DNA from: an uncultured delta proteobacterium
Lineage (GTDB): Bacteria > Desulfobacterota > Desulfomonilia > UBA1062
Reading direction: 5' to 3'
NCBI GenBank assembly: GCA_963798485.1
Contig: CAWCTR010000023.1
Span: 1-64,000, forward strand
Length of the DNA: 64,000 bases
Positions 1 through 21,181 of the stretch are shown here, one piece after another. A program made the translations under genes and the position numbers. The notes beneath the pieces are model-generated. The model had not been told where the DNA came from. It did not search any database and was given only the letters and a program-made list of their open reading frames with translations. How positions within the stretch are numbered: the stretch's first letter is position 1; each line of letters begins with the position of its first letter.

Positions 1-21
1 CAGGATGCCATATAACCTCAT
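1..21 (-). CDS. N-terminus (MRLYGIL) of a gene running off the window, probably the ABC permease of the MacAB-like pump
   Basis: The ATG at 21-19 overlaps the TGA of the ABC ATPase (ATGA coupling). Product is inferred from operon context only. Confidence 0.4.
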
Positions 22-710: not shown

Positions 711-738
711 GGGTTTCGCCGCTCCATTACCGGCTTGT

Positions 739-2076: not shown

Positions 2077-2153
2077 AATTCTCTCCCGTTACGATTATGG
2101 GCGTATGGATGACCGTAATACAACACAATCCATGTGGTTTTCTCTATAGTGGT

Positions 2154-2185
2154 TTAAGACGTCTGGTATATCCGAAATGTCTACA
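2154..2185 (-). promoter_or_regulatory. Putative ECF-sigma promoter TGTAGAC-N17-CGTCTTAA facing the macA-like gene
   Basis: One of six copies of the motif in the window, all intergenic and oriented toward envelope loci. Confidence 0.7.
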
Positions 2186-2220
2186 GGGATTGATTACTAC
2201 TCCCTGTGTTGTTATACAGA

Positions 2221-2252
2221 TGTAGACAAATCCATCAGTCTGGACGTCTTAA
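2221..2252 (+). promoter_or_regulatory. Putative ECF-sigma promoter TGTAGAC-N17-CGTCTTAA facing the OM-protein/lpoB operon
   Basis: Exact motif match, divergent from the copy at 2154-2185. Confidence 0.7.
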
Positions 2253-2334
2253 TAACACAAAGTGGCTCGATTTCATCTCATGCCGGCTACGTTTGAATAG
2301 TTACAAGAGAAACGATCTCACAGGAGGAAAAGAT

Positions 2335-2817
2335 ATGAAGAAGGTTATTTCGATAACATTTGTCCTGATGGTTCTTCCTATGATTTCACATGGTGCCGGG
2401 TATGTCCTTGCAGATTACGGCGATGGCGGCAAGGTCCATGCGTCAAGCTATGGGCTTGAGCTGGGCGATATATTCCTTTCCCCCTACCATCCCAATGGCG
2501 GGGCTTTCAGCCTCGGGATCGGCGCAAGCATAGCCCAGACCGATGAGAGCATACCATCCTCTCCGACAAGAACCTATAACCATGGAAATGAGCAGGAGAT
2601 CTATGCCTCATTCGGCGCCGAGATAGTGCCCGCGTTCTTCGGTGTCGCCGGGATAGGGTATACCACCCAGGATGTCCGCAAACCCGACCTCACCTTAGAC
2701 ACGGACAACAATGTCACCTGGATGCTCGGCATGCGCTATGTGGTAAAGTCCTTCGATATGGGCTTAGGCTACGATTATCGACGCGGGATTACGGCAAGCC
2801 TTGGGGTGGCCTTCTGA
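2335..2817 (+). CDS. Putative small outer-membrane beta-barrel protein
   Basis: AGGAGG RBS before ATG 2335, signal peptide, alternating amphipathic strands, C-terminal ...LGVAF with terminal Phe. Confidence 0.65.
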   Translation: MKKVISITFVLMVLPMISHGAGYVLADYGDGGKVHASSYGLELGDIFLSPYHPNGGAFSLGIGASIAQTDESIPSSPTRTYNHGNEQEIYASFGAEIVPAFFGVAGIGYTTQDVRKPDLTLDTDNNVTWMLGMRYVVKSFDMGLGYDYRRGITASLGVAF

Positions 2818-2855
2818 AAAAAGCCCTTTATTATTTATTTGTCCACAGGTAAACA

Positions 2856-4310
2856 ATGGCCACGACCTCTGCGTCTATCTACTACTATTATAGAGTGTTG
2901 AAAGGGTATAGCTTGAGAACGTTTATCTTTGTACCCGTTTTTTCGTTGAGCCTCCTGATTGCATTATCCGGATGCTCGAGCCTCCAGAACTATACCAAGC
3001 ATTCGGCACAGGCACGGGCATCGATAGCGGCAGGCAATTTCAATGGGGCACTCGCTACCTTTCCCGAAACAGCGGCCACGGGAAAGGATGAGGTCCTGAT
3101 AAGATTAGAACGGGGAATGATCCTTCAGGATGCAGGCCTCTTCGAGCAGAGCTCACATGAATTCGAGCTCGCAGACAGAGAGATCAGGGACTATCAGGAC
3201 AGGGCTGTGATTTCAGCAAGCAAGACCGCTTCCGAGGTAGGTACCCTGATTCTCAACGAACAGGTCATGTCCTATGAGGGAGAAGACTTCGAGATCATTC
3301 TCCTCCATGCGCTGAATGCCATGAACTACCTTATGAGGGGAGATCTCGAAGGGGCGCGGGTGGAGGTCAGGAACTCTTATGAGAGCCAAGGGCAACTCTC
3401 TGCAAAACATGAAAAAGAGATGCAAAAGGCCCAAGAAGACTCACATTCCTCGGACTGGGAACGGTCCTTTGACAAGGCCGACTCTCAGGGATATGCGCAG
3501 CTCAAGGACAAGGCCTCTACGGTTGCAAGCCTTTATCAGGACGCATTTGCGTCCTATATCTCGGCCCTTGTCTATGAGCTGGGTGGTGAGAGCGACGATG
3601 CCTATATCGATCTCAAGAAGGCATATCAGGCTTACCCGTCATGCCGGAGTATCCAGAGGGACCTTGTACGCCTGAGCGGGAAGATAGGTTTCAGGGAGGA
3701 TCAAGGGCAATGGGAGAAGAAGTTCGGAAGGTTCAAGGCTGTCCCGAAAGACGCGGTGGATGTGTTCGTGGTTTTCAGCTACGGCCTGGCGCCTTATAAA
3801 GTACCGCTGAATATTCCCATTCCCATCTCCCGCGGGTTTACCTTTGCCTCGCTGCCGGTGTATAGATTCAGCCCGTCGGACATCTCCGGAGGACTGGTCA
3901 CGGCAGGTGGCCTGAACGAGGAGACATCAACGGTGTTTGATGTTGATGCCGTGGCAGCAAGGAACCTCCTGGATGATTACCCCATAATTTTTGTGAAACA
4001 GGTTGCGAGGTCATATATCAAGGCCAAGGCCACAAGCCAGTTGGAGCATAATTTTGGCGATGCAGGTGCGATCCTTGGCATATTTGCCTCGGCGATAACG
4101 GAGCAGGCCGACCTCAGGGCCTGGTTGAGCCTACCCAAGCAGATCCAGGTGGCAAGACTCTTTGTGCCCAGGTCTTCGCCGGATATCTCCATAAGAAACC
4201 TGCCATATGGAAGTTCATCTACTGTGCAGATACCAAAGGGGGCATCACACATAATCGTATACTGCAGGGCCACGGAAAACGGCCTAGCCATATATACGAA
4301 ATCATTCTAG
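2856..4310 (+). CDS. COG3014-like TPR lipoprotein (start uncertain)
   Basis: Lipobox ALSGC, YEGEDFE..LHALNAMNY and EQADLRAWLSLP motifs; typically found upstream of ycfL-lpoB. Confidence 0.75.
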   Translation: MATTSASIYYYYRVLKGYSLRTFIFVPVFSLSLLIALSGCSSLQNYTKHSAQARASIAAGNFNGALATFPETAATGKDEVLIRLERGMILQDAGLFEQSSHEFELADREIRDYQDRAVISASKTASEVGTLILNEQVMSYEGEDFEIILLHALNAMNYLMRGDLEGARVEVRNSYESQGQLSAKHEKEMQKAQEDSHSSDWERSFDKADSQGYAQLKDKASTVASLYQDAFASYISALVYELGGESDDAYIDLKKAYQAYPSCRSIQRDLVRLSGKIGFREDQGQWEKKFGRFKAVPKDAVDVFVVFSYGLAPYKVPLNIPIPISRGFTFASLPVYRFSPSDISGGLVTAGGLNEETSTVFDVDAVAARNLLDDYPIIFVKQVARSYIKAKATSQLEHNFGDAGAILGIFASAITEQADLRAWLSLPKQIQVARLFVPRSSPDISIRNLPYGSSSTVQIPKGASHIIVYCRATENGLAIYTKSF

Positions 4311-4325
4311 ACAAGGAGGAACTCT

Positions 4326-4757
4326 ATGAGAAAAATAGGCGGATCTTTATTAATACTGACCTTATTCATGGTTGCCTGTGCGGGGACGGCCCCAAATATC
4401 CTCCACGTTCAGGCAGGCCCCATGGGTGTGAGTGCCAAACAGGTGGAGATCAACGATAAATTTCTTGAAAGAACAATGAGCTTCGGCGATGTGAGCATCA
4501 AGCCGCTTGATGGTGCAAACTCCTTTGAGGCCCAGGTGATGCTGAAAAATGAGAGCGACCGGGACTTGTCCTTCGAGTATCGCTTTATCTGGCATGATGC
4601 ACGAGGGTATGAGATCTCTGGTGTGACCTCATGGATACCTGCCGCGCTCGGGGGCAGAGAGTCAAAAGGGTTTCGCTCGGCCTCACCCGGTCCCAATGCG
4701 GCAGGGTTTAAACTTATGGTGCGTAACCCCCATCCTGTAACGGACACGGGGTCATAA
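4326..4757 (+). CDS. YcfL/DUF1425-family lipoprotein
   Basis: Lipobox MVAC, FEYRFIWHDARG motif, position before lpoB. Confidence 0.8.
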   Translation: MRKIGGSLLILTLFMVACAGTAPNILHVQAGPMGVSAKQVEINDKFLERTMSFGDVSIKPLDGANSFEAQVMLKNESDRDLSFEYRFIWHDARGYEISGVTSWIPAALGGRESKGFRSASPGPNAAGFKLMVRNPHPVTDTGS

Positions 4758-4782
4758 GAGACGAACAGGAGGAAAAAGAGAT

Positions 4783-5379
4783 ATGAAGAGATACATACTT
4801 TTCTTGAGTATTATTGCGCTGGTGTTGCTCACCTGGGGTTGCGCCAGCACGCCGGAGGTGACCTACGGCAACCCGGATCAGGTGGAGACGGTGAGCGCGG
4901 ATTTCGGCTCTACGGACCTGCAGATGATCGCCGAGAAGATGGTGAACTCATTGCTGGCAAGCCCGGTGCTTTCTTCCGGCAACCGGCCGGTGCTCTATGT
5001 ACAGCATGTTCGGAACAAGACGGATGAGCACATCGACACCGAATCCGTAACGGATAAAATAAAGGTGACATTGCTCAAGTCAGGCAAGGTCAGGTTTTCC
5101 GCCATCGGAGATGTGAAGGACGAGCTTGTTAACCAGCTCGAGTTCCAGGCAGGATCAGGTATGGTCAATCCCAAGACTGCAAAGTCCATCGGTAAGCTGG
5201 TCGGCGCCGACTATTTCCTCTATGGCGAGCTCGCCTCCATCAAGAAATCTGCCGGCCGGGTCAAGGATGTCTATTTCAAGTTTACCCTCAACCTGGTGAA
5301 TATCCAGACCGGCCTCATCGAATGGGCCGATGAAAAGGAGATCAGGAAACAGGCCGAGAAGCCTCTTTTGGGCGGCTGA
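4783..5379 (+). CDS. lpoB: Penicillin-binding protein activator LpoB-family lipoprotein
   Basis: Lipobox TWGC; FGSTDLQ, VRNKTDEHID, GKLVGADY and TGLIEWADEKEIRK motifs. Confidence 0.85.
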   Translation: MKRYILFLSIIALVLLTWGCASTPEVTYGNPDQVETVSADFGSTDLQMIAEKMVNSLLASPVLSSGNRPVLYVQHVRNKTDEHIDTESVTDKIKVTLLKSGKVRFSAIGDVKDELVNQLEFQAGSGMVNPKTAKSIGKLVGADYFLYGELASIKKSAGRVKDVYFKFTLNLVNIQTGLIEWADEKEIRKQAEKPLLGG

Positions 5380-5696
5380 GCCCTCCTTTAAGAATCTTCG
5401 GCCCATCAAACTCGATGATGAAGTTACACATAACTTCAATGGGAAAACTGTATCCACATGAAGGAGATAAAGATAACATCTGCATCGGCAAAGCAGGTTT
5501 GCCTTGATTCCACGAACATGAAACGGAAAGAAGGCTTTGGCGATCCTTAGATATACAGGAGGAGGGGTTCCCCCTTTCTGCCCGGACATGCCTGTATCCT
5601 GTCCATTGCAGGAAAAGAGGAAGACCCCTAAGGTGCAGATCAAAATTGCAACCCTCTTCACCCTCCATTCACTCCTTAATTGTTACCGTGCTGATC

Positions 5697-6080
5697 TTAT
5701 TCTGCAGGCTTCGCTGCCGGCGTCTCTTCTGCTTTCTTCTCTTCCATCTTAGCCGCCTTCTTCATAGCTTTCTTTCCCTTCATAACCTTGATCTTGTCAG
5801 CATTCATGGTGCCGGCAGCCAGGGTAACCTTAACCCACGCGCCCTTTTTCAGGTTAGCCATGTCTTCTGCCTTCACGGTGATGGTTTTGTCCTTTACAAC
5901 GATCGTGTTCGCTGCCATGTCGATCTTGGAGATCTTGCCCTTGATTACTTCGGCCTTTACTGCCTCAGCCTTTGCAGGCTCTGCTTTTGCTGCTGCGGGT
6001 GCTGCTGCGTCGGCTGCGAAGACCATCGAGGTGAAGCATACCAGTGCCAGTACTGCGATTAAGCTGATAACTTTTTTCAT
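5697..6080 (-). CDS. Secreted Ala/Lys-rich hypothetical protein with a small OB-like core
   Basis: GGAGG RBS, signal peptide ending VFA, KAE repeats, KGKISKID..IVVKDK..LKKGAWVKV. Confidence 0.8.
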   Translation of the reverse strand: MKKVISLIAVLALVCFTSMVFAADAAAPAAAKAEPAKAEAVKAEVIKGKISKIDMAANTIVVKDKTITVKAEDMANLKKGAWVKVTLAAGTMNADKIKVMKGKKAMKKAAKMEEKKAEETPAAKPAE

Positions 6081-6288
6081 GGTACATCCCTCCTGAGATT
6101 TTTTATTGACGTTTCTCCTATACGCCGGCGATGGTTAAACAATGATTAAAATATAATTAGAATATTCTAATTATACACAGGTGAAAGATAAGAAACTGGT
6201 GAAACAAGGGCTTTCTAAGGCCCGGCACCGATTTATTGATAGCGCTTCGTTGCTGGATCTCATCGGAATCCACCTCTAGTCCATGACC

Positions 6289-6342
6289 TTTACAAAGATT
6301 AACAATCTTCCTGTAAACGAAATAGTACCCAATACGTCTTAA
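6289..6342 (+). promoter_or_regulatory. CpxR-type box (TTTAC-N5-TTAAC), 8 bp gap, then ECF-type promoter TGTAAAC-N16-CGTCTTAA
   Basis: Same architecture as at 11906-11960 and 18916-18969. Confidence 0.7.
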
Positions 6343-6376
6343 CAAGCAGCACGGGAAGAAACCTAAAGGGGGAAAT

Positions 6377-6481
6377 ATGAAAAAAACCCTAAAGGAAGAA
6401 TGGGATAACAAAAAATGAAAAAGAGACACGGCAAGGCAGGCCATGGATCATGGAGTAACGAGCAATAGTAAGACGGATCTC
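6377..6481 (+). pseudogene. Collapsed remnant of a cpxP-like gene
   Basis: 6415-6468 encodes MKKRHGKAGHGSWSNEQ, matching the C-terminus MKKNRHHKAGHGGWSKK of 18382..18882. DNA similarity continues past the stop (TAAGACGGATCTC vs TAAGACCGATCTC). Confidence 0.7.
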
Positions 6482-6511
6482 ACAATAGAAAGATCGTGAA
6501 TAACCACACAC

Positions 6512-6588
6512 AATGACTACCTCCATAAGTAACCTATACCTCCTAATTACCTCCCTCTTGGGGAGCTGCAACAGCTCCCCGATTTTTT
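6512..6588 (+). ncRNA. Candidate small RNA, copy 1 (three ACCUCC motifs plus intrinsic terminator); 5' end uncertain
   Basis: Conserved with 11978-12055; 9-bp stem GGGGAGCTG/CAGCTCCCC at 6560-6580 followed by GA-T6. Confidence 0.5.
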
Positions 6589-6628
6589 CAAAAGAAGCGG
6601 GAGCCATGTCAGCTTAACCTACATTCGT

Positions 6629-6871
6629 ACTGAGGAGGCACAAGATCCATGAAGAATCTAAAAACCGGTGATTGGCTGTTGATTGCCGGCGAAGCAGGGT
6701 TGTTCTTCATCGTCACCATAGTCGTATGGCTTGATGAATTCATGGATTTGCCAGCCCGTTTCCTCGGGGCTACACCGAAACCCTTCAGGCCTCAGGAATA
6801 CCTCGTGGAGGCTGTCTCGATTCTCATTGTTGCAGTAGTCGCTATCACTATAACTTTTATCTCACTGCGGA
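6629..6871 (+). repeat. Duplicated segment (RBS plus first ~74 codons), copy 1
   Basis: 8 nucleotide differences over the ~223-nt coding part versus 12262-12484, counted by eye. Confidence 0.95.
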
Positions 6872-8679
6872 TATCCAGGCTGTTGCAGAAGACGATTACG
6901 ACAAGGGAACTGGAGATAAACCGACTTCGCGCCTTTGCCAAGAACACGAGTATAACGCTTCAAGGCCGGGGGCTTTCCCCCGGAATGGTGGAAGGAGTGG
7001 CGCTTGTCTACCAGTCGCCGGAAAGCGAATTAATCTCCGGGGGCCAGGCCATTGCACGTAATGATGTAAAGCCTGAGATCGACCGGCTCGACGGTGCCTT
7101 GGCGGCAGCGATCTACGAGTTGGACAACACTCAGAAACAGTACGCAGGTGACATGGCAGCTGCGGAGAGTTCTTTGCTGGACGCGCACCTGGCCATGCTC
7201 AAGGACGTCGAGTTTTGGGACAAGTGCAGGCAGCGCGTCCGTGAGGACCTGGTCAAGGTCGAGCAGGCGGTTGCGGAAGAGGTCCGGGGGCTGGCAACGA
7301 TGCTGGAGGGATTGAAGCAGGAGATCATGCGGGAGCACAGCGCCGACATCCGTGATATAGGCCGTCGGGTCTTACGGAATATCAGGAACTTCGGTGAGGT
7401 GTTGCCAAACCAACTGGTGTCTCTCCCGCCAAACACGATTCTCGTCGCAAAGGAGCTCTTGCCGTCGGATTTACTGCAAATGGATCGTACAAATCTAGCA
7501 GCCTTGGTTACGGAGCGCAACGGTCCTGCCTCACATGTCGCAATCCTGGCGCGGACCAGAAACGTTCCTGCGGTCAGCGATATCAAAGATGCCGCCACGC
7601 TGCTGGCGACCGGTGACCGTTTGCTGGTGGATGCGGAGGCCGGCACCGTCACGGTGGCGCCGACCAAAGCGCAGACGGCGCGCTTCGCAGCGCGTAGGAG
7701 TCAATATACCACGCTTGAGCCCGCCGTGGCACAGGGACCTGCCCAGAAATGTGCCACGAAGGATGGTGTCCGTATCGGGTTATTTGCGAATATCAGCAGA
7801 ACAGATGAGGCGCACCTGGTTCAAGAGTATGGGCTGGATGGTGTGGGCCTGTTCCGGTCCGAGTTTCTCTTTCTCGATGTCGGGCAGCCGCCGGACTTGG
7901 AAACGCAGCTTGCGGCCTATTCTGCGGTGGCGAAAATACTCGATCCGCGCCCTATCGTTATCCGTACTATGGATCTTGGTGGGGATAAGATCCCGTGTTT
8001 CAATCGCAGTGAAAACGACCTGGCCTTGCGGACGGGCAAACGTGGCTTGGCGTTTTCCCTGACCGAAAAGACGATGTTTCGCACCCAACTTCAAGCGATC
8101 CTCCGAGCCGCGCAAGGGGGCGATGTGCGGATCATGTTTCCCATGGTAATGGGTGTGGCGGACCTGAAAGAGGCATGCAATATGGTTGACGAGGTGGTCG
8201 AAACTGAACAACTCGCCAAGCGCCCTTCCATTGGGGCCATGATCGAGACCCCCGCCGCAGTGTTTGATATACATGAGATCGTGAAGGTCGTGGATTTTGT
8301 ATCCATCGGGACCAACGATCTCGCCCACTTCATACTGGCTATGGACCGCCAATCACAAGAATCTTCCGGCGTGCTTTCGTTCTTGCATCCATGTGTGCTG
8401 CGGGCAACGGAGCAGGTGGTACGTGCTGCCCTGAATCAGGGGGTGGGCCTAACCGTGTGCGGAGAAGCGGCAGGTAATCCGGTTACTGCTTGCCTGTTGG
8501 TGGGGATGGGTGTCAGGGATCTCAGCATGAACCCGTTTTATGCCGCGCGCGTATGCCGCGTTTTACAGCAGTTGAATCTCGAACAGATGGAAGTCGCCGT
8601 TAGGGATGCCTTAAGCGTCACAACTCCGGAGGACGTCCGGCAGATCGTTGCATCGGTACTTCGCGGAACAGAAGAGTAA
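6649..8679 (+). CDS. Phosphoenolpyruvate-protein phosphotransferase (PTS enzyme I family) with a fused N-terminal two-TM domain
   Basis: Phospho-His motif GPASHVAILAR; GVGLFRSEFLF, IRTMDLGGDK, MIETPAA, SIGTNDL and VCGEAAG motifs. First ~74 aa are shared with 12262..12735. Confidence 0.92.
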   Translation: MKNLKTGDWLLIAGEAGLFFIVTIVVWLDEFMDLPARFLGATPKPFRPQEYLVEAVSILIVAVVAITITFISLRISRLLQKTITTRELEINRLRAFAKNTSITLQGRGLSPGMVEGVALVYQSPESELISGGQAIARNDVKPEIDRLDGALAAAIYELDNTQKQYAGDMAAAESSLLDAHLAMLKDVEFWDKCRQRVREDLVKVEQAVAEEVRGLATMLEGLKQEIMREHSADIRDIGRRVLRNIRNFGEVLPNQLVSLPPNTILVAKELLPSDLLQMDRTNLAALVTERNGPASHVAILARTRNVPAVSDIKDAATLLATGDRLLVDAEAGTVTVAPTKAQTARFAARRSQYTTLEPAVAQGPAQKCATKDGVRIGLFANISRTDEAHLVQEYGLDGVGLFRSEFLFLDVGQPPDLETQLAAYSAVAKILDPRPIVIRTMDLGGDKIPCFNRSENDLALRTGKRGLAFSLTEKTMFRTQLQAILRAAQGGDVRIMFPMVMGVADLKEACNMVDEVVETEQLAKRPSIGAMIETPAAVFDIHEIVKVVDFVSIGTNDLAHFILAMDRQSQESSGVLSFLHPCVLRATEQVVRAALNQGVGLTVCGEAAGNPVTACLLVGMGVRDLSMNPFYAARVCRVLQQLNLEQMEVAVRDALSVTTPEDVRQIVASVLRGTEE

Positions 8680-8748
8680 ATCTCCTAAGACCAACTTTTC
8701 GTAACCATTAAGGTTCGTCTAAACTGATTTCGTAAGGCGAATCCTTTG

Positions 8749-9225
8749 TTATGATGTTTCTTTGCCCCTAGATACCCTTCTATTGCGATATTCCTCATAA
8801 TCAGGCACCAGGCGATCGTATTCTCCGTCCATTAAGGGAGAAGATATCATGAAATCAGCAGAGGCCCGGTTACAGGCAATGGGTATGTTCCATACCACTG
8901 CCATCCGCAGGAGGGCTTTCACATCGGGGTCATGGGGCTGCGGCTCGAGCGGGTCCCAGAAAAAGATGAGGAAATCGATCTCTCCATCTGCGATCTTGGC
9001 CCCTATCTGCTGATCACCGCCTAATGGTCCGCTTTGGAGTATTGTGACCTGGAAGCCAAGTTCCTGTTCCAGTATCTTGCCGGTAGTGCCTGTGGCATAT
9101 ATCTTATGGTGAGCCAGGAGAGTACGGTTAAATTTGGCCCATTCCACAAGGCCCTCTTTTTTGTTGTCGTGTGCCACAAGGGCGATCTTCTTATCATGAT
9201 CCATAGCGATTTTCTTATGCTCCAT
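8749..9225 (-). CDS. mgsA: Methylglyoxal synthase
   Basis: [27 protein letters not shown] and [20 protein letters not shown] motifs. Confidence 0.97.
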
Positions 9226-9287
9226 ACGAATGTATGCCCCTTTCTCTTCTGAAACTCTTTTCGGGTGGCAACCGAACGGGGGATGAT

Positions 9288-10238
9288 TTAGCCTCTGTGC
9301 CTTTCTTCCATCCCGCCTCTCCCGCCGCCTGAGGACGGTCTGATCTTTTTCCCATGAGAGGTCGAATTGCCCTTTTTGCTTCCACTAGAAGACTGGTCGG
9401 GATTTCTATTCTTGGACATCTTTTGTGTACGGGTCCCGTTAAAAATGGTTCTTTCGCCTCTCGAAACCCCCGTAGAGATAAAGTTTCCACCATGAGGAGC
9501 ACCTATGCCGGCAAAGGTTTTTCCATGGAATCTCGATACGGCATCGACACGAAAAACCCTATGCTCTCTAACATCATTGAAATGGTTGGATATAAATACC
9601 GTCCTATGATTCACGTTTACGATCCTGTGAAAGTCTTGGAGGATGAAAAATCCGGCAAACCAGAAATCGGTCCACCAGAACGGACAAGGGACCCATGAGT
9701 ACATGTAATAATAGTCGGGAGGTGGTGCGTAGTATGTCACTACCGGCGGGCCTTGATTGTAATAATAGTTGTTTACCACCGTTTGATCGGGGAATTGCTC
9801 GGGACCCGATGGGTGGGGTTGATTGGCGGCATATGACCTTATGGATAAGTTGAGACCTGCTACTGTATCCTGAAATATCTGCAGTGCCTCATTTTTGTCG
9901 TCAGGCAGCTTTTGGGCAAGTGCGGCATCACTCACTGATTTCTGTAACTCGGTGATGATGTCAGGGGTTACCGGATAATCGGCGATCCACCCATTCCGCG
10001 GTGCGATGCCGACCTCACCGAGACTGCTCTCGGCCTCAACTTCATCCTGGGTTGTCCCCAGGCCCAATGCGGCCTGCAGTTTGATCGCGAAGTCTCCTTC
10101 ACGGACCAGCTCCTGTGCTAATGGAGGCGAGGTCTGTCCAGACTGATCTGATTGTGCGTGAATCATTGCCGGCATTAAAAACATGAGATAGAGACTGACA
10201 ATAAGTGATCCCTTATACCTGAAAGGCACCCGTTTCAT
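9288..10238 (-). CDS. Secreted hypothetical protein with a Tyr/Pro/Trp-rich segment and a low-complexity basic tail
   Basis: GGAG RBS, signal peptide, long uninterrupted ORF. Confidence 0.75.
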
Positions 10239-10366
10239 TGAACTTCTCCTTTCATCTTTCGCTCTCTCTCTATTTCAATATATATTCTATGCTCTGAAAA
10301 TCGAGTATCAGTGATCAGGAGGTACTTTTAATATGGTTCATGACAACCGCTGATATTCAATCGGTA

Positions 10367-11686: not shown

Positions 11687-11793
11687 GGCAATATCCTGTA
11701 CCTTCCACATTCGAATGAGCTTTATCAGCGTCCCGGCCCTTGAAGCCGTGTAAATCGTCCATCGTTCCTCTTCAGCGTCATTTCCTTTGAGTA

Positions 11794-11825
11794 TTAAGAC
11801 GTCCGGTTCGGGAGATTAGTCTACA
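11794..11825 (-). promoter_or_regulatory. Putative ECF-sigma promoter TGTAGAC-N17-CGTCTTAA facing the bepA-like gene
   Basis: Exact motif match on the minus strand. Confidence 0.7.
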
Positions 11826-11905
11826 TGACTGTTTTCAACGGAAACGAGAGAAGAGAAGTACACTGTTTTATTCCTATAGTTCAATAATTATTATCAGGTC
11901 GGGCC

Positions 11906-11960
11906 TTTACAAATTTTTACAGTCTCATTGTAAACGATACAGTACCCCCATGCGTCTTAA
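11906..11960 (+). promoter_or_regulatory. Perfect CpxR-type box (TTTAC-N5-TTTAC), 8 bp gap, then ECF-type promoter TGTAAAC-N17-CGTCTTAA
   Basis: Read directly; same phasing as at 6289 and 18969. Confidence 0.72.
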
Positions 11961-11965
11961 CAGGC

Positions 11966-12055
11966 AACAAGGAAAAAAATGACCAATTCCATACATAACC
12001 TATACCTCCTAATTACCTCCCTCTTGGGGAGCTGCAATGGCTCCCCGATTTTTTC
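11966..12055 (+). ncRNA. Candidate ~90-nt small RNA, copy 2 (ACCUCC motifs plus terminator)
   Basis: Bounded by a promoter motif and a hairpin with T-tract at 12027-12055. Stem changes versus copy 1 (CA to TG) create G-U pairs on the + strand. Confidence 0.55.
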
Positions 12056-12241
12056 AAAAGTAACGGAGGCCATATCAACATACCCTACCATCCTGGGATT
12101 CGTTCTTGGTTTGCTCCGCTTAATGGGAAAGGATGAACATCTATATGGACTTTTAAAAGGATATATCACCTTGACAGGTTTTTTTCACAAGTTCCTGTAG
12201 GTGAACCTCATATTTACCAAGTTGTCTCTCATTATAAAAGG

Positions 12242-12484
12242 ACTGAGGAGGCATAAGACCCATGAAGAATCTAAAAACCAGTGACTGGATGTTGATTGCC
12301 GGCGAAGCAGGTTTGTTCTTCATTGTCACCATAGTCGTATGGCTTGATGAATTCATGGATTTGCCAGCCCGTTTCCTCGGGGCTACACCGAAACCCTACA
12401 GGCCTCAGGAATACCTCGTGGAGGCCGTCTCGATTCTCATTGTTGCAGTAGTCGCTATCACTATAACTTTTATCGCACTGCGGA
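12242..12484 (+). repeat. Duplicated segment (RBS plus first ~74 codons), copy 2
   Basis: Near-identical to 6629-6871. Confidence 0.95.
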
Positions 12485-12735
12485 GAGTAAGGCGGGTTGA
12501 GCGATTTTTAAGGGTCTGCGCCTGGTGCAGGAAAATATGGGTGGATGGTGAATGGGTGAGTCTTGAAGAATATGCGCTGAAGATGCATTCACTGAAATCC
12601 AGCCACGGCATCTGTGAAGAGTGCGTAACCGGGCTTGAGAAAAAGAACGGGCAAAAGAGGGCTGTAAGAATTGAAGGTCTCACGGATAAACCACCTCACC
12701 ACATGCGTATGCGGTACCAGAAGCCGTTACAATAA
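12262..12735 (+). CDS. Two-TM membrane protein with a C-terminal CAWC...SHGICxxC putative Zn-binding domain
   Basis: GAGGAGG RBS, two hydrophobic helices, VCAWCRKI..W..SHGICEEC. Confidence 0.85.
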   Translation: MKNLKTSDWMLIAGEAGLFFIVTIVVWLDEFMDLPARFLGATPKPYRPQEYLVEAVSILIVAVVAITITFIALRRVRRVERFLRVCAWCRKIWVDGEWVSLEEYALKMHSLKSSHGICEECVTGLEKKNGQKRAVRIEGLTDKPPHHMRMRYQKPLQ

Positions 12736-12764
12736 GTAGACCGGTTTCAGTATATCGAGACCAC

Positions 12765-12900
12765 GTTGATGTCGACAGGGTGGATAATAAATGATCGACC
12801 AACCTAGTCGCTGGGACATTCAGGCAATCCGCACGTTTATGTTTACCTTCGAAATAGTGAGCTCGGTGTTTGACTATCTCACCTTTGGTTTTTTTGTTAT
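12765..12900 (+). pseudogene. Fragment of an Mg2+-transporting P-type ATPase (MgtA/B-like) C-terminal membrane region
   Basis: DRVD, a frameshift, then MIDQPSRWDIQAIRTFMFTFEIVSSVFDYLTFG, resembling the D.VD..P.RW..I.RFM..FG..SSIFD..TF segment of MgtA. Confidence 0.6.
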
Positions 12901-13071
12901 TCATCTTCAATGCGTACTTGACATACAAGCACCAAGTATTTCATTATCCAGGACATCGATAAGTGCGGTTATGAAGAGTAGCTATCCAGGTCTGCGAGAT
13001 GGGACTGGCACGGGGAAGTGCTTGACAATATGAATGTTTCATAGAATCTGTTTAGAAAAAGGAGGCCCACT

Positions 13072-13989
13072 TTGTTCGATGTTATTCTTCCAAGAAAGAT
13101 AAGATTTTCTCATTTCATCTTTGTGTTTAGCTTTGTATTCATTTTTTCCGGGACGGCAACCGCTGCAGATAATCAGTTATTGCCCCTTGACCTCTCATCG
13201 GTCCCTGCTGAGGTACGTAACCAGCTGCCGCTCCCTTACGGCTTATCAGTGAATTATACCTATGTGGACGAGAAGCTCGACATAAGGAAATTCGACCTCC
13301 AGCTTAACGGCTATCCAGTCCCATCAGGTCTTGTAAATCTAGGCAGTTTGAAGCAGCAGACCCAGGCTGAGACAGTCCGTATAGACGCCTGGCTGATGTC
13401 TTTTCTTGATCTTTACGGCGTCGGAGGCTTTGTCAACGGGACCGCCAATAAATTAGACATTAACATTGCTAATCAAGCACAGATTGCTTCTAATCCTTCT
13501 TATCTAGGATTCGTAGAAAACCTACCTCAAAGCATGCAAGCTATGCTATCGCCCGGTGGTTTATCTTCTGATTTATCTTCTATTGACTACCATGGGACGG
13601 TCTATGGTTTTGGGACTATGCTTGGCGGCGGATATGGACATTTCTTTTACAGCTATGATGTGAATTACACCTGGACAAATATCAATCGGCTCCAAACCGC
13701 AGTGAATACTCTGTCCCAGGAGATAAGGGTTCGATACAAGATGGATGCCTTCGGAGGCAAGGTTTCTGTTTTCACCGGAGCGTCTAATGAGGATATCAAG
13801 TCAAGGCAGTCGGGTACGTATACTTTGAATGGGACTAACCTTGAATACTCCCTAGTGGCACGGTCGGACAATCCGTGGAACGCCCTTATAGGCACAGAGG
13901 TGGAGTTCACCCCACACTGGAACCTGGCCATACAAGGTGGGTTCATCGGGAGAGACCAGATTACATCGTCACTGGGATATCGATTCTGA
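13072..13989 (+). CDS. Putative outer-membrane beta-barrel protein
   Basis: AGGAGG RBS with TTG start, signal peptide, LPYGLSVNY and RIDAWLMSFLDLYG segments, terminal ...LGYRF. Confidence 0.7.
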   Translation: MFDVILPRKIRFSHFIFVFSFVFIFSGTATAADNQLLPLDLSSVPAEVRNQLPLPYGLSVNYTYVDEKLDIRKFDLQLNGYPVPSGLVNLGSLKQQTQAETVRIDAWLMSFLDLYGVGGFVNGTANKLDINIANQAQIASNPSYLGFVENLPQSMQAMLSPGGLSSDLSSIDYHGTVYGFGTMLGGGYGHFFYSYDVNYTWTNINRLQTAVNTLSQEIRVRYKMDAFGGKVSVFTGASNEDIKSRQSGTYTLNGTNLEYSLVARSDNPWNALIGTEVEFTPHWNLAIQGGFIGRDQITSSLGYRF

Positions 13990-14013
13990 TACAGCCTTGA
14001 TAAAACATTCACA

Positions 14014-15651
14014 TCAACGGTCTTCAATACTCATCTCAATACAGGTAAGTGAGTGAGCAGGAAGCTGAATATCAAAGGCGGCTCCGCTTTCTTCACGGGT
14101 AATCCTCATGGCTTTATGGCTCTTTCTGATCTGTATCGCATTGGGTTCGGTGTAGGTATTATATTGAACAGGATCGGGATGTGACATTTCCAGATAGTTA
14201 TCGACAGAGATGACCCTGATACCCTTTAAGAGGCACGCGGCATTCACTGCAGCATCATAATGCCGATTCACCAAAAAGAGTGACAGTTTGTTGCCGGTTA
14301 GAGTTGCTGACAGATCAAGCACAGGAAGTCCCGTCTCATGAGGGATTACAGGGCAATCTACATGGCTTGAAAGGAGCATATCGCCGGCATGCTCGGTGTA
14401 TATTTTGAAGACAAGCCCGGAAGGGGTGAGGAATGTGCCCTGAGGGCTTGAGCATATTATTCCGATACAATTCACCATTTGAGAGAGGTTGGCGAGCGGC
14501 ATTTCCGGGGCGTAGCGATGAAACATGTTCAACATACTTGCCACCCATAAACCGTCTCTAAGATTATAATTGGTCTCGATCACATCGGAGTAAAAGGCAT
14601 ACCAGAGATTCCATTCATCAAATGCCAGTGCGATCTTCTTTCCCGCCGGGGAATGTGTCCTGACGTCTCTGGCGTTATCGGCCACAAAATCTTCCATATA
14701 CTTAAGAGAACCGAGAATGTCATAATAGACCTTTCGGGAACCGCTCCGTTCACGGTGAAGAAACTGGTGGAGAATATGATATCTGATCGTATAAAAGAAG
14801 CTGGGTCCATAGAGATGAACCGATAAGAAATCCATCTCCTTTCCGGCCCCTGCCAGCACAGTCCGATTGATGTCATCACGCCTCCCAAGTACAGCCATCA
14901 TGATCGGGTTGACATCATCACGCTTCCGGGAAGGCCACATGGTGCCGCATCCGATGAGTTTTATCTTCGGATCAAGGCGCCGCATGGCTTGTGCATATTC
15001 ATTGAAGGTTATTACGTATTGATCCGGGTTCATGTGTCCGGTCTCAAAAAACGAGAACATCTCATTGCCTAGCGTCCAATACTTTACTCCGTAAGGCTCT
15101 GGATGGCCGTTTTGAGTACGCACCGCTCCCCAGCGTGAGTCCTTCGGTCCATTGCAGTATTCAACCCAGGCGGCGGCCTCTTCGGCCGTGCCTGATCCTA
15201 CATTGACGGTAAGCTGAGGTTCCGCACCGACCTCTTTGCACAACTCCATAAACTCATCTGTACCGAAGTGATTATCTTCCAGCGGGCCAAGATGCTTACC
15301 CAGGAACGGGAATCTATTCCATGCCTTGTTCTTCACCATGGGTCTCCGGGCCTTCGGCCCTATCCCGTCCTGCCAATGGTACGTGTCGGCAAAACACCCT
15401 CCGGGATACCGGATCAACGGGGGGTGAATTGATTTTATGGCATCAACAAGTTCCCGGCGCACGGCGCCAAGAAACATTTCCGGTGACTCGCCTTCAGCCC
15501 AAATACCACCATTGATACACTTTCCCAGATGCTCGATGGAATGACCATACTGTGTGTGAGGCAACACATGAAGCACCTCCGGTTCTATGGTGATCGAGGC
15601 CCGCAAGGGTCTGCCTGCGATTCCCTTTCCGTAGGATCTGCTGAATGCCAT
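14014..15651 (-). CDS. Glycoside hydrolase family 51 (alpha-L-arabinofuranosidase-like)
   Basis: EHLGKCINGGIW, RYPGGCFADTYHWQDGIGP, FGTDEF, WTLGNEM (acid/base) and FDEWN (nucleophile). Confidence 0.92.
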   Translation of the reverse strand: MAFSRSYGKGIAGRPLRASITIEPEVLHVLPHTQYGHSIEHLGKCINGGIWAEGESPEMFLGAVRRELVDAIKSIHPPLIRYPGGCFADTYHWQDGIGPKARRPMVKNKAWNRFPFLGKHLGPLEDNHFGTDEFMELCKEVGAEPQLTVNVGSGTAEEAAAWVEYCNGPKDSRWGAVRTQNGHPEPYGVKYWTLGNEMFSFFETGHMNPDQYVITFNEYAQAMRRLDPKIKLIGCGTMWPSRKRDDVNPIMMAVLGRRDDINRTVLAGAGKEMDFLSVHLYGPSFFYTIRYHILHQFLHRERSGSRKVYYDILGSLKYMEDFVADNARDVRTHSPAGKKIALAFDEWNLWYAFYSDVIETNYNLRDGLWVASMLNMFHRYAPEMPLANLSQMVNCIGIICSSPQGTFLTPSGLVFKIYTEHAGDMLLSSHVDCPVIPHETGLPVLDLSATLTGNKLSLFLVNRHYDAAVNAACLLKGIRVISVDNYLEMSHPDPVQYNTYTEPNAIQIRKSHKAMRITREESGAAFDIQLPAHSLTCIEMSIEDR

Positions 15652-15655
15652 GTCC

Positions 15656-16051
15656 TTATTCTCCCGGTTGTTTTTCATTTGGGACATCTGATTTTAAGCG
15701 GGACGGCAGGTGGTTGGCCGCAAAGAAAAACCCAAAAGATATAATAAAGGTAATGAAGGCTAGTGTGTATGCGAGTGATTTTCCATGCCATAACCCGGCA
15801 ATCCAACGGGTGAACTCATCGGCAAGCACAGCCGCCTTTCCGCCATAGAGTTCCAGGTCATGTCGATATATCTTGGAATCTTGGGGCATAATCGGATAAG
15901 CTGAACCACCTACTATTTCATAGCCCAGAGCGCTGCTCAGATCATCTTCAGCAGTCTGATAAATATAGATGGCACTACCCAACCCGACAAGCAGGATAAT
16001 GGCGCTGATAAGCTTGAATAATGCACGTAGATTCTTGATGTTCCACCCCAT
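15656..16051 (-). CDS. Two-TM hypothetical membrane protein
   Basis: Two hydrophobic helices flanking SKIYRHDLELYGGK; tightly spaced in the operon after the kinase. Confidence 0.75.
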   Translation of the reverse strand: MGWNIKNLRALFKLISAIILLVGLGSAIYIYQTAEDDLSSALGYEIVGGSAYPIMPQDSKIYRHDLELYGGKAAVLADEFTRWIAGLWHGKSLAYTLAFITFIISFGFFFAANHLPSRLKSDVPNEKQPGE

Positions 16052-16064
16052 CTTATGTCTATTC

Positions 16065-17447
16065 TTACGGCATTAATGGCAACGTTATAACAATAACTAA
16101 ACCGCCATCCGTAGCATTATGGGCACTCACGTTGCCGTGGTGGAGCCTCACGGCACGTTCCGTGATGGCTAAACCAAGTCCTGATCCCCCTGTCTTTCGA
16201 TCACGGGCATCCGACACCCGGTAGAACGGATGAAACAAATAAGGGAGTTCTGATTCTAAGACCCCATCGCCATGATCATGAACCGTGATCTCGGCAAATG
16301 GTATCGTATCGTGCATGACCCGTTGGAGCATGATATCTACATCCGTGTTCTCATGGGTATAGTGGATGGCATTGCGGACAACATTCTCAATAGCCCGTCG
16401 TAGTAATTCTTCATTGCCCGATATAATGTACTCCAGACTGTCGACATGCAGTACGAGATGGCAGGAATTTTGGGCCTCAAAATTTGCATCGACGGTGATT
16501 TTTTGAGCAAGGCGCTTTAGATCAACAGGAGATGATTGTATTCCCTCGATATCGTTTTCGATGCGAGTGAGCGTGAGCACCTGGCCGATCATCTCATTGA
16601 GTAATCTCGCTTCCCTTTCAATACGGTTTAATTGGTTTTCAGCTTCCGGACCGGTCTGCCTCCGTGCAAGTTCCAGCGCTACATTGAGCCGGGCCAGTGG
16701 CGAGCGGAGTTCATGCGAGATATCACCGAGCAATTGCCGCTGTGAGGTCATGAGCGATTCGATGCGCTCTGCCATCCGGTCAAAATCTTTTGCCAGCTCG
16801 GTGAGTTCATCCTTCCTTCTTGCAGTGTCTTTGCCGATTCTTACTGACAGCTCACCTGCGGCAAACCTTCGTGTCGCCTCCCGAAGTTTTATAAGCGGTG
16901 AGGTCAGATAACGGGCAAGCCAATAACAGACCCCTCCTGACAGGAAAAGAATGATAAATATACGGAATACCAGCAAGGTAGTGTTTCCATGAAAAGGATT
17001 GAAGGCATGTCTCGGCATGATGCCGACTACTCCGAAGACATGGCCGTTTGTTGTCTTAATGGTCATCGCCAGAAGCACCCTATCATCTAAAAATAAAGAT
17101 TCGGTTTTTCCGCTTTGCCCGGCTTGACCCAGGAGGGCCTTGGCATCAGGGGCTATCGTGCGGTTAGTGATCTCTTGATTATTCTCATCGAGCACGTAAG
17201 CATCGATCCTGGAGGAGTTTTTCAATTGGTCAGTGAGTTTCGCCAAGGCTGCATGATCGCCATGTAAATGATACTCTGCAGCCATCTGACCATACAGGGA
17301 CAAAGTAACACCGATGGTGTTCTGCAAATGGTGGATCATTGGCCCTGATTGGGTCAGACGGTCAAAACTTATCAAAGTACCGACAATAAGCGTTGTTGCA
17401 ATCCAGAACCAGAGATAGATTTTTATGAAAATGTTCAGCTTTGGCAT
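16065..17447 (-). CDS. cpxA: Sensor histidine kinase, CpxA-like
   Basis: IFIKIYLWFW N-terminus, HAMP domain, H-box LLGDISHELRSPLARL, AIENVVRNA, PFYRVSDARDRKTGGSGLGLAI. Confidence 0.85.
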   Translation of the reverse strand: MPKLNIFIKIYLWFWIATTLIVGTLISFDRLTQSGPMIHHLQNTIGVTLSLYGQMAAEYHLHGDHAALAKLTDQLKNSSRIDAYVLDENNQEITNRTIAPDAKALLGQAGQSGKTESLFLDDRVLLAMTIKTTNGHVFGVVGIMPRHAFNPFHGNTTLLVFRIFIILFLSGGVCYWLARYLTSPLIKLREATRRFAAGELSVRIGKDTARRKDELTELAKDFDRMAERIESLMTSQRQLLGDISHELRSPLARLNVALELARRQTGPEAENQLNRIEREARLLNEMIGQVLTLTRIENDIEGIQSSPVDLKRLAQKITVDANFEAQNSCHLVLHVDSLEYIISGNEELLRRAIENVVRNAIHYTHENTDVDIMLQRVMHDTIPFAEITVHDHGDGVLESELPYLFHPFYRVSDARDRKTGGSGLGLAITERAVRLHHGNVSAHNATDGGLVIVITLPLMP

Positions 17448-18190
17448 GATGGTTCCTTGGAATATTCGCCTTTTGAGTCATGGTCAGGTGGAGGTGTAGG
17501 GGTATAAAGATAGCCCACACCGCGTATTGTTTTTATTCGCTCCTTACCCGATACCTCATGACCAAGCTTTTTGCGCAGCTTGCTGATGTGTACATCTATG
17601 CTGCGGTCATACGGAGAAAGTGAGCGGCCAAGTACTGCATGCATCAACTCTTCGCGCGACACGAGTCGCCCTGACTTATGTAACAATATTTCAAGAAGAC
17701 CGAATTCGACATTGGTGAGATCAATCTTTTCACCTGAGCGGATTACTTCGCGTGTTCTCATATCCATTTTCACATCACCTATAGTCAGTTCTTCAGGTAT
17801 TTGCGGCAATGTTCTCTCTTCGGGTTCCTGTTTCACCCGCCTCAGTACGGCACGTATACGTGCGAGTAATTCGCGGGGGTTGAAGGGTTTCGGCAAATAG
17901 TCATCCGCACCCATCTCTAATCCTATGATCCTGTCTACATCATCGCCACGGGCCGTCAGCATAACAACAGGCGTACTGACTCCGGCCCGAAGACGGCGCA
18001 GTACCTCAAAGCCATTTCCAACCGGCAGCATCACATCAAGCACGATAAGGTCGTAATTACCCTCAAACACCATATTAAGCCCCACTTCTCCGTCATGGGC
18101 ACACTCGAGATGAAAACCTTCCGGAGTCAGATATTCCTTGATCAATTCACACAATTCAATGTCATCATCTATTACGAGTACATGCTCCAT
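17435..18190 (-). CDS. cpxR: OmpR-family response regulator, CpxR-like
   Basis: REC domain (LDVMLP, MLTARG, GADDYLPKPF) and winged helix (YDRSIDVHISKLRKKL, IKTIRGVGY); cpxP-R-A context and CpxR-type boxes nearby. Confidence 0.85.
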   Translation of the reverse strand: MEHVLVIDDDIELCELIKEYLTPEGFHLECAHDGEVGLNMVFEGNYDLIVLDVMLPVGNGFEVLRRLRAGVSTPVVMLTARGDDVDRIIGLEMGADDYLPKPFNPRELLARIRAVLRRVKQEPEERTLPQIPEELTIGDVKMDMRTREVIRSGEKIDLTNVEFGLLEILLHKSGRLVSREELMHAVLGRSLSPYDRSIDVHISKLRKKLGHEVSGKERIKTIRGVGYLYTPTPPPDHDSKGEYSKEPSCQS

Positions 18191-18293
18191 GGAAAACTCC
18201 CTTGTCTCGTTTCTGATTCGGATCTCCAGTATATAACGAGTATATAAATTTATAATAATAACATCAGTAAAAAAGAGTCATGATGCGCTATTC

Positions 18294-18308
18294 TTTACAA
18301 AACTTTAC
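18294..18308. promoter_or_regulatory. Perfect CpxR-type box upstream of cpxR (possible autoregulation)
   Basis: TTTAC-AAAAC-TTTAC, which reads GTAAA-N5-GTAAA on the minus strand. Confidence 0.65.
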
Positions 18309-18381
18309 ACAACTAATGATTATATTAACAGTAATTCATCGATGATGTCCCACCATCACATTCCACGGGGAGAGATCGGTC

Positions 18382-18882
18382 TTACTGGTTCTGATTGTTC
18401 TTTTTACTCCAGCCACCATGACCGGCCTTGTGGTGTCTGTTTTTCTTCATCTCCTGGGACTTCACGGATAATTGTTTAAATCGATCGGGACCGAGGATGT
18501 TTCTCACCCCGAGCATATATTGCAGATGTGCGTTGTCGAGATTCCGCTTAACCGTCTCAACCTGACTGAACTGGTTATTCAGGGCTGTTCGATCAACCGG
18601 GTTTTCCTCAAGGATGCCCTCAAGTTTTAGGTGTTCCTTTTTCAGAGAGCTTGCCAGAGCCGACATTGTGTCGTGGTTCTGAGCATACAAATTATCAAGA
18701 GCCTGCTTCTCGTCGCTTGTGAGGTTCAGCGCAATAGCCAGCTTCGGCCATTGCCACCACTTGCCCATGGGCATGTCCTTTGCCTGGACCTGCACCGCAA
18801 TAAAAAAGAAGAGAGGCAGGCATAAGAGCACGCCTGAGAGAACCCTTTTTGTTTTGGTTTGTTCTGAATGGTTACCTTTCAT
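18382..18882 (-). CDS. Periplasmic CpxP/Spy-family protein
   Basis: GAGGAGG RBS, signal peptide, GKWW, LNLTSDEK and ILGPDRF (LTxxQ-like) motifs; upstream of cpxRA. Confidence 0.8.
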   Translation of the reverse strand: MKGNHSEQTKTKRVLSGVLLCLPLFFFIAVQVQAKDMPMGKWWQWPKLAIALNLTSDEKQALDNLYAQNHDTMSALASSLKKEHLKLEGILEENPVDRTALNNQFSQVETVKRNLDNAHLQYMLGVRNILGPDRFKQLSVKSQEMKKNRHHKAGHGGWSKKNNQNQ

Positions 18883-18915
18883 AGTTCCTCCTCTATAATT
18901 TTTTCAAACTGCCTA

Positions 18916-18969
18916 TTAAGACGATCTTTTTGATGCATCGTTTACAAGGGAACGGTAAATATTTGTAAA
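18916..18969 (-). promoter_or_regulatory. Perfect CpxR-type box (18955-18969), 8 bp gap, then ECF-type promoter TGTAAAC-N16-CGTCTTAA facing the cpxP-like gene
   Basis: Read directly from the sequence. Confidence 0.72.
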
Positions 18970-19125
18970 GGGCGGGATAGATTCAGTACAAGTGTGAAAA
19001 AAGCAGAGTATATACCTTTTCGTACTGAACCACAAGAACGAGTATTCAACGTGTCGAAGGAATCCCTGTCGGGGAATTCTTAGTCTGACTTGACATCCGG
19101 GCGGTTTTCCAGTTCATACAATGCT

Positions 19126-21044: not shown

Positions 21045-21181
21045 ACAAGTGCCCCCCTCGATAAATGTGCTGTTCTAATAATTTATAATATACGGGAAAC
21101 ACCCATGAGAATCTACTGGTGATCCTTATGAAGAATAGGAGCGGAGCGAAGAGCTAAAGTTAACGATGAAAAGGCATGACC

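Follow-up and report, generated by a model that had tools for sequence, protein, structure and literature searches.

Among sigma factors of the extracytoplasmic function (ECF) type, sigmaE of Escherichia coli (group ECF02), which has RseA/RseB, governs an autoregulated envelope regulon that comprises chaperones and, among its targets, the protease gene bepA, from promoters of the type GAACTT/TCAAA. Another promoter type, with a CGT-type -10 and a -35 ending in AAC, is used by SigX (ECF116), SigW and SigV of Bacillus subtilis and by ECF120 of Bacteroidetes, the portion of the PMC7826278 supplement available to us giving TGAAAC/CGTCTAAT for ECF116 and TGTAACAAA/TCGTCAT for ECF120. According to the accessible part of the same source, the groups ECF111 and ECF281s2 combine an ECF gene with an anti-sigma factor that has a single membrane helix (in ECF281 also a zinc finger) and, at position +2, with an LTXXQ/heavy-metal-resistance protein, and both are predicted to be autoregulated, from promoters TTGAACCT/GTCTAAA and GGAACTT/GTCTAA. 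Here we describe a system of this known kind from a new lineage. Its hallmark is a repeated motif, TGTARAC-N16/17-CGTC, in 64,000 nucleotides of DNA (hereafter the window; contig CAWCTR010000023.1, positions 1 to 64,000) from an uncultured delta proteobacterium of the Desulfomonilia. The genome is referred to as G000, in which the window is C23:1-64000; other genomes are numbered G0xx, contigs bear C-numbers and compared loci L-numbers. The original prediction held that six copies of the motif are promoters of a clustered, sigmaE-analogous regulon read by one ECF sigma factor encoded elsewhere. We consider it probable, at roughly 0.8, that the repeats are promoters read by an ECF sigma factor encoded on contig C16 and that the genes they drive encode mostly exported, envelope-related proteins.

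All six sites lie at the coordinates and on the strands predicted, and independent open reading frame (ORF) calling agrees that all six are intergenic. In the order 2185(-), 2221(+), 6312(+), 11825(-), 11929(+) and 18946(-), their spacers measure 17, 17, 16, 17, 17 and 16 bp; the -35 reads TGTAGAC at 2185(-), 2221(+) and 11825(-) and TGTAAAC at 6312(+), 11929(+) and 18946(-), and the 3' end of all six is CGTCTTAA. A seventh, degenerate site, which had been missed, is a perfect match in its G002 counterpart. The sites are listed here, class II being the boxed candidate promoters discussed further below.

2154..2185, minus strand: class I ECF promoter motif, TGTAGAC-N17-CGTCTTAA, upstream of a MacA/HlyD-like gene (739-2076) and an ABC ATPase gene (18-710)
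2221..2252, plus strand: class I ECF promoter motif, upstream of the gene for an exported 160-aa protein (2335-2817)
2848..2879, plus strand: degenerate seventh site, GGTAAAC-N17-CGTCTATC, upstream of a lipoprotein-like ORF (2856-4310), a DUF1425 gene (4326-4757) and an LpoB gene (4783-5379)
6312..6342, plus strand: class II (boxed) ECF promoter motif with a 16-bp spacer
11794..11825, minus strand: class I ECF promoter motif, upstream of an M48 (BepA-like) protease gene (10367-11710)
11929..11960, plus strand: boxed ECF promoter motif with a 17-bp spacer, the sole exception among 14 boxed sites
18916..18946, minus strand: class II (boxed) ECF promoter motif with a 16-bp spacer, upstream of a Spy-like gene

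The window has seven copies of the octamer CGTCTTAA, where 100 shuffles gave 0.87 on average, and six of the full motif, where 200 dinucleotide shuffles gave none. Since the full motif was defined post hoc, a comparison of spacer lengths is a fairer test than shuffling. Across G000, TGTARAC-N(k)-CGTC is found 29 times at k=17 and three times at k=16; each of 20 other lengths has 0-7 occurrences, and chance would give about 1.4 per length. By our own ORF calling, 27 of the 32 strict N16/N17 sites are intergenic (5 of 26 for other spacers), and 23 of these 27 have a same-strand ORF start within about 210 bp. Genome-wide only CGTC is invariant, which corrects the earlier claim of an invariant 8-nt -10. 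Scanning the genome with a matrix built from 27 sites at ECF loci of relatives gave 27 matches above 21 bits, of which 25 are intergenic; two shuffled genomes gave none. The scan picked up all six window sites and added 2848. In 14 genomes of the same genus the N17 pattern has 109 matches and an N20 control 18; the corresponding numbers are 75 and 86 in 23 genomes of another family, where an orthologue of the C16 sigma factor was not found. The latter count omits G043, whose 34 matches are mostly one repeat: about 30 near-identical dispersed copies of what is probably an unrelated repeat element fit the N17 pattern there, in a genome where the sigma orthologue was likewise not found. In G000 itself, six of 27 sites lie within 17 kb, which never occurred in 5000 random placements; duplication accounts for much of this clustering. 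Of the regulon as originally conceived, the single ECF gene elsewhere and the control of envelope genes are supported; its sites are genome-wide rather than a local cluster.

The octamer at 54930 was rejected as a site, as it has no -35 and lies within repeated coding sequence. The 436-aa ORF that holds it (54252-55562) is transposase-like on reading of its sequence, and the same context occurs six times in the genome.

Twelve genes of G000 match sigma-70 region 2, and six of them are of ECF size. Only one of the six, C16:13728-14333, has the motif upstream (at -94); for the other ECF genes the count is 0 of 5. The encoded sigma factor has 201 aa and consists of sigma2 and sigma4 domains only (PF04542 and PF08281); the best PDB match of its profile is SigW (E 8e-30), and it scores 69.7 bits on the NCBIfam RpoE model TIGR02939, the cut-off being 236. 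Its closest labelled relative, at 74% identity, is from Desulfomonilia, and the 10 matches listed in a plasmid search are all below 40% identity. Of 61 genomes, 24 proved to have an orthologue; at E<=1e-25 the other family yielded none. Within 600 bp upstream, the strict motif is present on the sense strand at 24 of 24 orthologues and on the opposite strand at none; at 22 it lies within 210 bp, and at two ahead of an intervening small ORF. Its spacer is N17 in 23 cases and N16 in one, with a freely variable middle, and the bases past CGTC vary as well. Seven of nine further close loci have the motif (two near-duplicates of loci already counted), and none of 71 unrelated ECF loci does. Upstream motif mining is an accepted route to ECF promoter inference (PMC7776599, in the part available), and by these comparisons the C16 ECF is the likely cognate sigma factor of the motif. 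At L034 (G020) and L036 (G015) a gene for a small exported protein stands between promoter and ECF gene.

In the C16 operon the ECF gene is followed by the gene of a protein of 170 aa that has HxxxCxxC and a single hydrophobic helix, the latter judged by eye, and then by that of a 147-aa Spy-like protein. HxxxCxxC is invariant in 20 aligned +1 proteins, which were chosen by that motif, and is visible in further +1 ORFs too; Pfam zf-HC2 matches just one of the 20, weakly. At G000:C16:12725-14333 (L013) the ECF, the membrane protein of the zinc-binding anti-sigma (ZAS) type and the Spy-like protein are conserved, often with a DUF4382-like lipoprotein gene next; the ZAS-type protein ends in a DDFLDF-like acidic tail, and the Spy-like protein has a GxWW-type motif. 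By analogy, the Spy-like protein could serve the anti-sigma as a CnrX-like sensor.

Compared by their descriptions, ECF111 and ECF281s2 share this layout, whereas their predicted promoters are unlike TGTARAC/CGTC, and a term search of the accessible part of the PMC7826278 supplement returned neither TGTAAAC nor TGTAGAC. SigX, SigW, SigV and ECF120 share the CGT-type -10 and the AAC ending of the -35, but the present system has a 7-mer -35, TGTA[A/G]AC, belongs to other phyla, has another anti-sigma and another +2 gene, and stays far under the NCBIfam cut-offs. The likeness to sigmaE that had been proposed holds in role only: the ECF02 promoter differs from the motif, the RpoE score is far below its cut-off, and a ZAS-type anti-sigma with a Spy-like neighbour is found in place of RseA/RseB. 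The regulon is thus envelope-related in its role, and the system is not ECF02. We regard motif and regulon as real and as previously unnamed in the sources searched; none of the literature matches listed is a paper with 'Desulfobacterota', and the available parts of PMC8103513 and PMC12802237 contain nothing decisive for this system.

In the mechanism that we propose, and hold to be very probable, an envelope signal would make the membrane anti-sigma release the sigma factor, which would then transcribe its own operon and about 25-27 other promoters. The outputs would be Spy-like chaperones, TolC-like and MacA-like efflux parts, the M48 protease and lipoproteins. For an uncultured anaerobic lineage, the response to envelope stress could then be assigned a sigma factor, a promoter code and a list of targets. 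Three points weigh against it: the close orthologous loci L182 and L185 have no motif within 600 bp, the link between sigma factor and motif is a comparative one, and some of the targets are cytoplasmic (a DUF6982 protein and an FMN reductase).

The motif could also be pictured as a recombination or insertion site of mobile cassettes and no promoter at all, which we find barely credible. Several homology blocks to G002/G003 do end at or inside motif copies (2204/2208, 11938-11942 and 11978), and many copies were duplicated along with their flanks. These breakpoints are, however, explained by recombination between paralogous promoters, and the motif is conserved on the sense strand at all 24 ECF orthologues despite divergent spacers, as well as at Desulfobacteria-type loci that share no flanks; its bipartite 17-bp geometry, moreover, suits ECF promoters.

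The predicted targets are consistent with promoters of an envelope regulon. With four of the 27 sites omitted for having no ORF, 16 of 23 first ORFs begin with a hydrophobic N-terminal stretch, against 22% of 3342 genes. On the level of sequence comparison, the claim that an ECF sigma factor reads these promoters passes in spacer specificity, in the motif at the sigma gene, in orthologue conservation and in mostly exported targets. The targets include Spy-like paralogues on C8 and C14, a broken copy on C4 and the one at window position 18382; two TolC-like proteins; a MacA-like adaptor with its ABC ATPase; DUF4382 lipoproteins (one checked in Pfam, three look-alikes); an OmpH-like ORF; the M48 protease; and several small exported proteins. 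Several recur under the motif in three to five genomes, and the 160-aa protein encoded at 2335-2817 does so in G002, G003 and G013. Neither bamA nor degP is among the first genes examined behind strict sites. The targets originally named fared unevenly. The macAB-like pump is borne out by the MacA/HlyD-like gene and ABC ATPase behind 2185, and the LpoB gene is indeed present, behind the seventh site at 2848; the outer-membrane barrel, i.e. the 160-aa protein, has no Pfam match and is barrel-like by inspection only; the bepA-like protease is of the M48 family, at 147 bits well under the BepA cut-off of 570; and the supposed cpxP gene is Spy-like, a paralogue of the third gene of the ECF operon.

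Elsewhere in G000, a duplicated unit (C4:246101/245577 and C4:174667/174132) consists of two tandem ECF promoter motifs, a DUF6982 gene and then a DUF4382-like lipoprotein gene, and C7:423624 has a truncated DUF6982-like copy. A weak site, TGTAGAC-N17-CGTATAAT, lies at C21:57980(+), immediately upstream of an LptF/LptG permease gene.

At 6312, 11929 and 18946 we found a further element that the original prediction had lacked, TTTACA-N4-TTWAC(A/C), which ends 7 bp ahead of the -35 and 30 nt from the -10. It is the reverse of the CpxR consensus GTAAA-N4-8-GTAAA (PMC5063474, in the part available), and the window encodes a candidate binder.

6289..6304, plus strand: direct repeat of the CpxR type in reverse, TTTACA-N4-TTAACA, lying 7 bp upstream of the -35
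11906..11921, plus strand: direct repeat of the CpxR type in reverse, TTTACA-N4-TTTACA, lying 7 bp upstream of the -35
18954..18969, minus strand: direct repeat of the CpxR type in reverse, TTTACA-N4-TTTACC, lying 7 bp upstream of the -35
18294..18309, minus strand: the same box upstream of the regulator gene, reading GTAAA-N5-GTAAA on the sense strand and conserved in 4 of 4 orthologous loci
16065..17447, minus strand: CpxA-like histidine kinase (best NCBIfam models CpxA, below cut-off)
17435..18190, minus strand: CpxR-like response regulator of the OmpR family, candidate binder of the box
18382..18882, minus strand: Spy/CpxP-family periplasmic protein (PF13801), 40% identical to the third gene product of the ECF operon

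Among the 77 strict sites of G000, G002, G003 and G004, the box accompanies 13 of 19 with an N16 spacer and one of 58 with N17; in other genomes it was absent from all 40 sites examined, a scoring that included 29 of the 38 N17 matches there. Boxed promoters and the orthologous regulator (87-100% identical) occur in the same four of 37 genomes, the only other regulator match being 45% identical, and in all four the box precedes both the regulator gene and the Spy-like gene. Four of the five best box scores in G000 fall within the window. The same box-promoter geometry is present in 9 of 12 distinct metagenome matches, and boxed promoters were not found in 400 other genomes of the phylum. Plain TTTAC-N5-TTWAC is not enriched genome-wide (11 occurrences versus 5-19 at other spacings), so that its position alone is informative. 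The recognition helix of the regulator resembles that of E. coli CpxR (4uht), and this OmpR-family regulator and a HAMP kinase adjoin a Spy/CpxP-family gene in the window. At G000:C14:162116 a strong, intergenic CpxR-type box has no ECF promoter behind it and is a possible further target of the regulator.

We lean, by a modest margin of confidence, towards class II sites being ECF-plus-CpxR AND-gate promoters. The 16-bp spacer would weaken initiation by the ECF alone, and the CpxR-like protein, once phosphorylated and bound at 30 nt upstream of the -10, would recruit the ECF holoenzyme, probably through the alpha C-terminal domain. ECF holoenzymes are usually regarded as activator-independent, and the precedents of co-activation that we found concern single promoters. 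One is degP, which is counted among the targets of sigmaE and of CpxR and whose induction by CpxR has been suggested to depend on sigmaE (PMC2731931); another is P2 of sigE in Mycobacterium tuberculosis, which needs SigE plus the phosphorylated response regulator MprA (PMC11173970; both sources in the parts available). Unlike these, the case described here concerns a whole promoter class with a fixed box geometry and a spacer one base shorter; and whereas in M. tuberculosis the sigma gene's own promoter is gated, here that promoter is unboxed and the gate would sit on copies of a chaperone cassette. In its layout the class II promoter is like architecture V of Salmonella PhoP, in which a reversed OmpR-family box likewise lies 30 nt upstream of the -10, and PhoP boxes that do not overlap the -35 appear to use the alpha C-terminal domain (accessible part of PMC3335776); the architecture V promoters are, however, sigma70 promoters and have a second box. 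If the AND gate is real, it is a compact case of two stress systems wired into one promoter, a ready device for synthetic ECF circuits and an example of regulons growing by promoter capture.

Several observations speak against it. Regulator and kinase stay below the NCBIfam cut-offs (CpxR 233 versus 341; CpxA 268 versus 486 and 343 versus 800), the regulator scores similarly on OmpR and RstA, and G000 has five OmpR-family regulators. Site 11929 is boxed and yet N17, six N16 sites in CpxR-bearing genomes are unboxed, and the ECF promoter of G013 is N16 without a box, so that N16 by itself is no silencer. A GTAAA half-site inside the -35 TGTAAAC could permit repression. Finally, the boxed promoters share a single ancestor and travelled together as a package, and the 13:1 spacer association and the co-occurrence in 4 of 4 genomes are therefore not independent.

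Alternatively, the ECF promoters may be what we take them to be and the box may not activate them, being instead a repressor site, a site serving the divergent gene, or baggage of a duplicated spy-cassette promoter, with the 16-bp spacer as a founder effect. We judge this less probable than the AND gate, though a credible competitor. The boxed promoters all belong to one family, relative to the divergent genes (5697-6080, the M48 protease gene and 19090-20073) the box stands in the sense orientation, a regulator on the half-site within TGTAAAC could occlude the -35, and partial boxes exist at C17:306309 and in L095 of G013. However, in the 13 boxed N16 sites the half-sites, the -35 and CGTC are near-invariant, as against about 30-60% conservation in the spacer middle and the upstream flank (a partly circular comparison, as the sites were chosen by motif and box score); the distance between box and promoter is constant regardless of the upstream gene; and a reversed box 30 nt from the -10 is a natural activating architecture for PhoP (PMC3335776, part available).

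Class II sites might instead depend on sigma70, with the CpxR-like regulator as activator, TTTACA serving as the -35 and the ECF-like elements being vestigial; this is highly unlikely. A consensus scan does give TTAACA-16-AATAGT at 6299 and TTTACA-16-TACAGT at 11916, and five of 14 boxed sites, all from the deleted-cassette family introduced below, have a sigma70-type -10. On the other hand, 9 of the 14 have no acceptable one, TGTAAAC and CGTC are kept in all 14 (true by selection), and sigma70-like matches in the region are at chance level (21 versus 21.4 expected). As an observation in its own right, a sigma70-like -35/-10 pair (window 6299-6326 and 11916-11943) overlaps the boxed promoter in 5 of 5 deleted-cassette copies and in 0 of 9 others, and could give basal transcription of a short RNA.

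The history of the region accords with promoters that spread by copying. By flank similarity the 27 intergenic sites form 15 families, and the six window sites are not independent: 6312, 11929 and 18946 are one flank family, 2185 resembles the spy-paralogue promoters at C4:441532 and C8:185822, and 11825 resembles C9:97508. Window positions 1-19100 match G002/G003 in scattered blocks, mostly at 84-94%, and positions 19100-28100 match G007 at 90% and G002/G003 at 80%. The closest relative thus changes sharply at about 19100, from G002/G003 on the left to G007/G011 on the right, which marks either an island boundary or an assembly chimera. In trees of ProS and of the ECF, G000 groups with G007 and G011, and the joining of the four CpxR-bearing genomes in one clade is rejected (approximately unbiased test, p-AU 0.0025 and 8e-6). 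Horizontal gain of the region is the simplest reading, the alternatives being losses in three relatives or an assembly chimera; the CpxRA module and the boxed promoters would then have reached the window sideways from the lineage of G002, G003 and G004. Against this stands the 6.96% contamination of G000, which means that the mosaic could be partly an assembly artefact.

Growth of the regulon would have proceeded by duplication of spy-like cassettes, in which promoters were retained and the ORF was deleted or swapped. At L046 (G002:C22:36402), L048 and L042 boxed promoters are fused to other ORFs, with a receiver-like domain in L046; these ORFs begin like the spy-like gene (MKG/MKA...), which looks like promoter capture in progress. 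Both loci that the original prediction had read as small RNA (sRNA) genes turned out to be spy-like cassettes with the ORF deleted, and for the sRNA reading itself the support is weak. Their parts in the window are as follows.

6377..6468, plus strand: remnant of a spy/cpxP-like ORF, with the start and last 17 codons kept, the body deleted and the frame shifted
6512..6590, plus strand: 3' untranslated region (3' UTR) of the cassette, candidate sRNA copy 1, unstructured and CU-rich with ACCUCC repeats, and an intrinsic terminator stem at 6558-6582
11978..12054, plus strand: the same 3' UTR and terminator, candidate sRNA copy 2, stem at 12024-12048, with the whole spy-like ORF deleted and a predicted transcript of about 90 nt

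A full-length copy of the spy-like cassette survives in G003. A 73-aa ORF at 11979-12200 was rejected as a gene, as it runs through the terminator.

That the deleted cassettes at 6312 and 11929 produce a functional, CpxQ-like and Hfq-dependent sRNA, freed from the spy-like mRNA by serial deletion and blocking ribosome-binding sites with its ACCUCC repeats, appears doubtful to us. It would fit the four deletion forms in three genomes, in all of which the boxed promoter and the last ~80 nt are retained, the unstructured CU-rich segment ahead of a strong terminator (z -4.4 for copy 1 and -2.2 for copy 2), the presence of Hfq in G000 (PF17209 match) and the origin of E. coli CpxQ from the cpxP 3' UTR (PMC9438474, in the part available). 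As in CpxQ, a conserved 3' UTR and terminator of a Spy/CpxP-family gene lie under a Cpx-type box in a host with Hfq; the ORF of CpxQ, however, is processed away, whereas here it is deleted, the Rfam search gave no sequence match, and the sRNA is a candidate only. Against the idea, the deletion loci were located by searching for the promoter and 3' element themselves, the element also occurs promoterless (G002:C2:388828, G007:C2 and G011:C38), boxed promoters also occur without it, and the ACCUCC repeats differ between the copies. Rfam has no credible match in window positions 1-22000, with two sub-threshold eukaryotic ones only, and when duplexes of the CU-rich segment with 3342 start regions were scanned, no envelope theme emerged among the best-pairing targets. 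The deletion forms may equally be nested decay of one pseudogene.

In its widest form our interpretation would be that a Desulfomonilia lineage made a copy of the promoter of an ungrouped ECF into a portable two-input switch, copied to new genes and moving between species with its CpxRA-like system, and that some copies of the switch shed their Spy-like ORF and set free a CpxQ-like sRNA. Taken whole, this is rather improbable; if true, it would be a snapshot of a 3' UTR sRNA turning into its own gene.

A membrane segment (MKNLKT...) is duplicated in the window, at 6649-8679 and 12262-12735, both copies following a spy-remnant terminator. An Atlas search with 12262-12735 returned hypothetical proteins only. 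The segment occurs once as a 157-aa protein with a C-terminal CxxC...HxxCxxC and once fused to a phosphoenolpyruvate-utilising (PtsI-like) enzyme.

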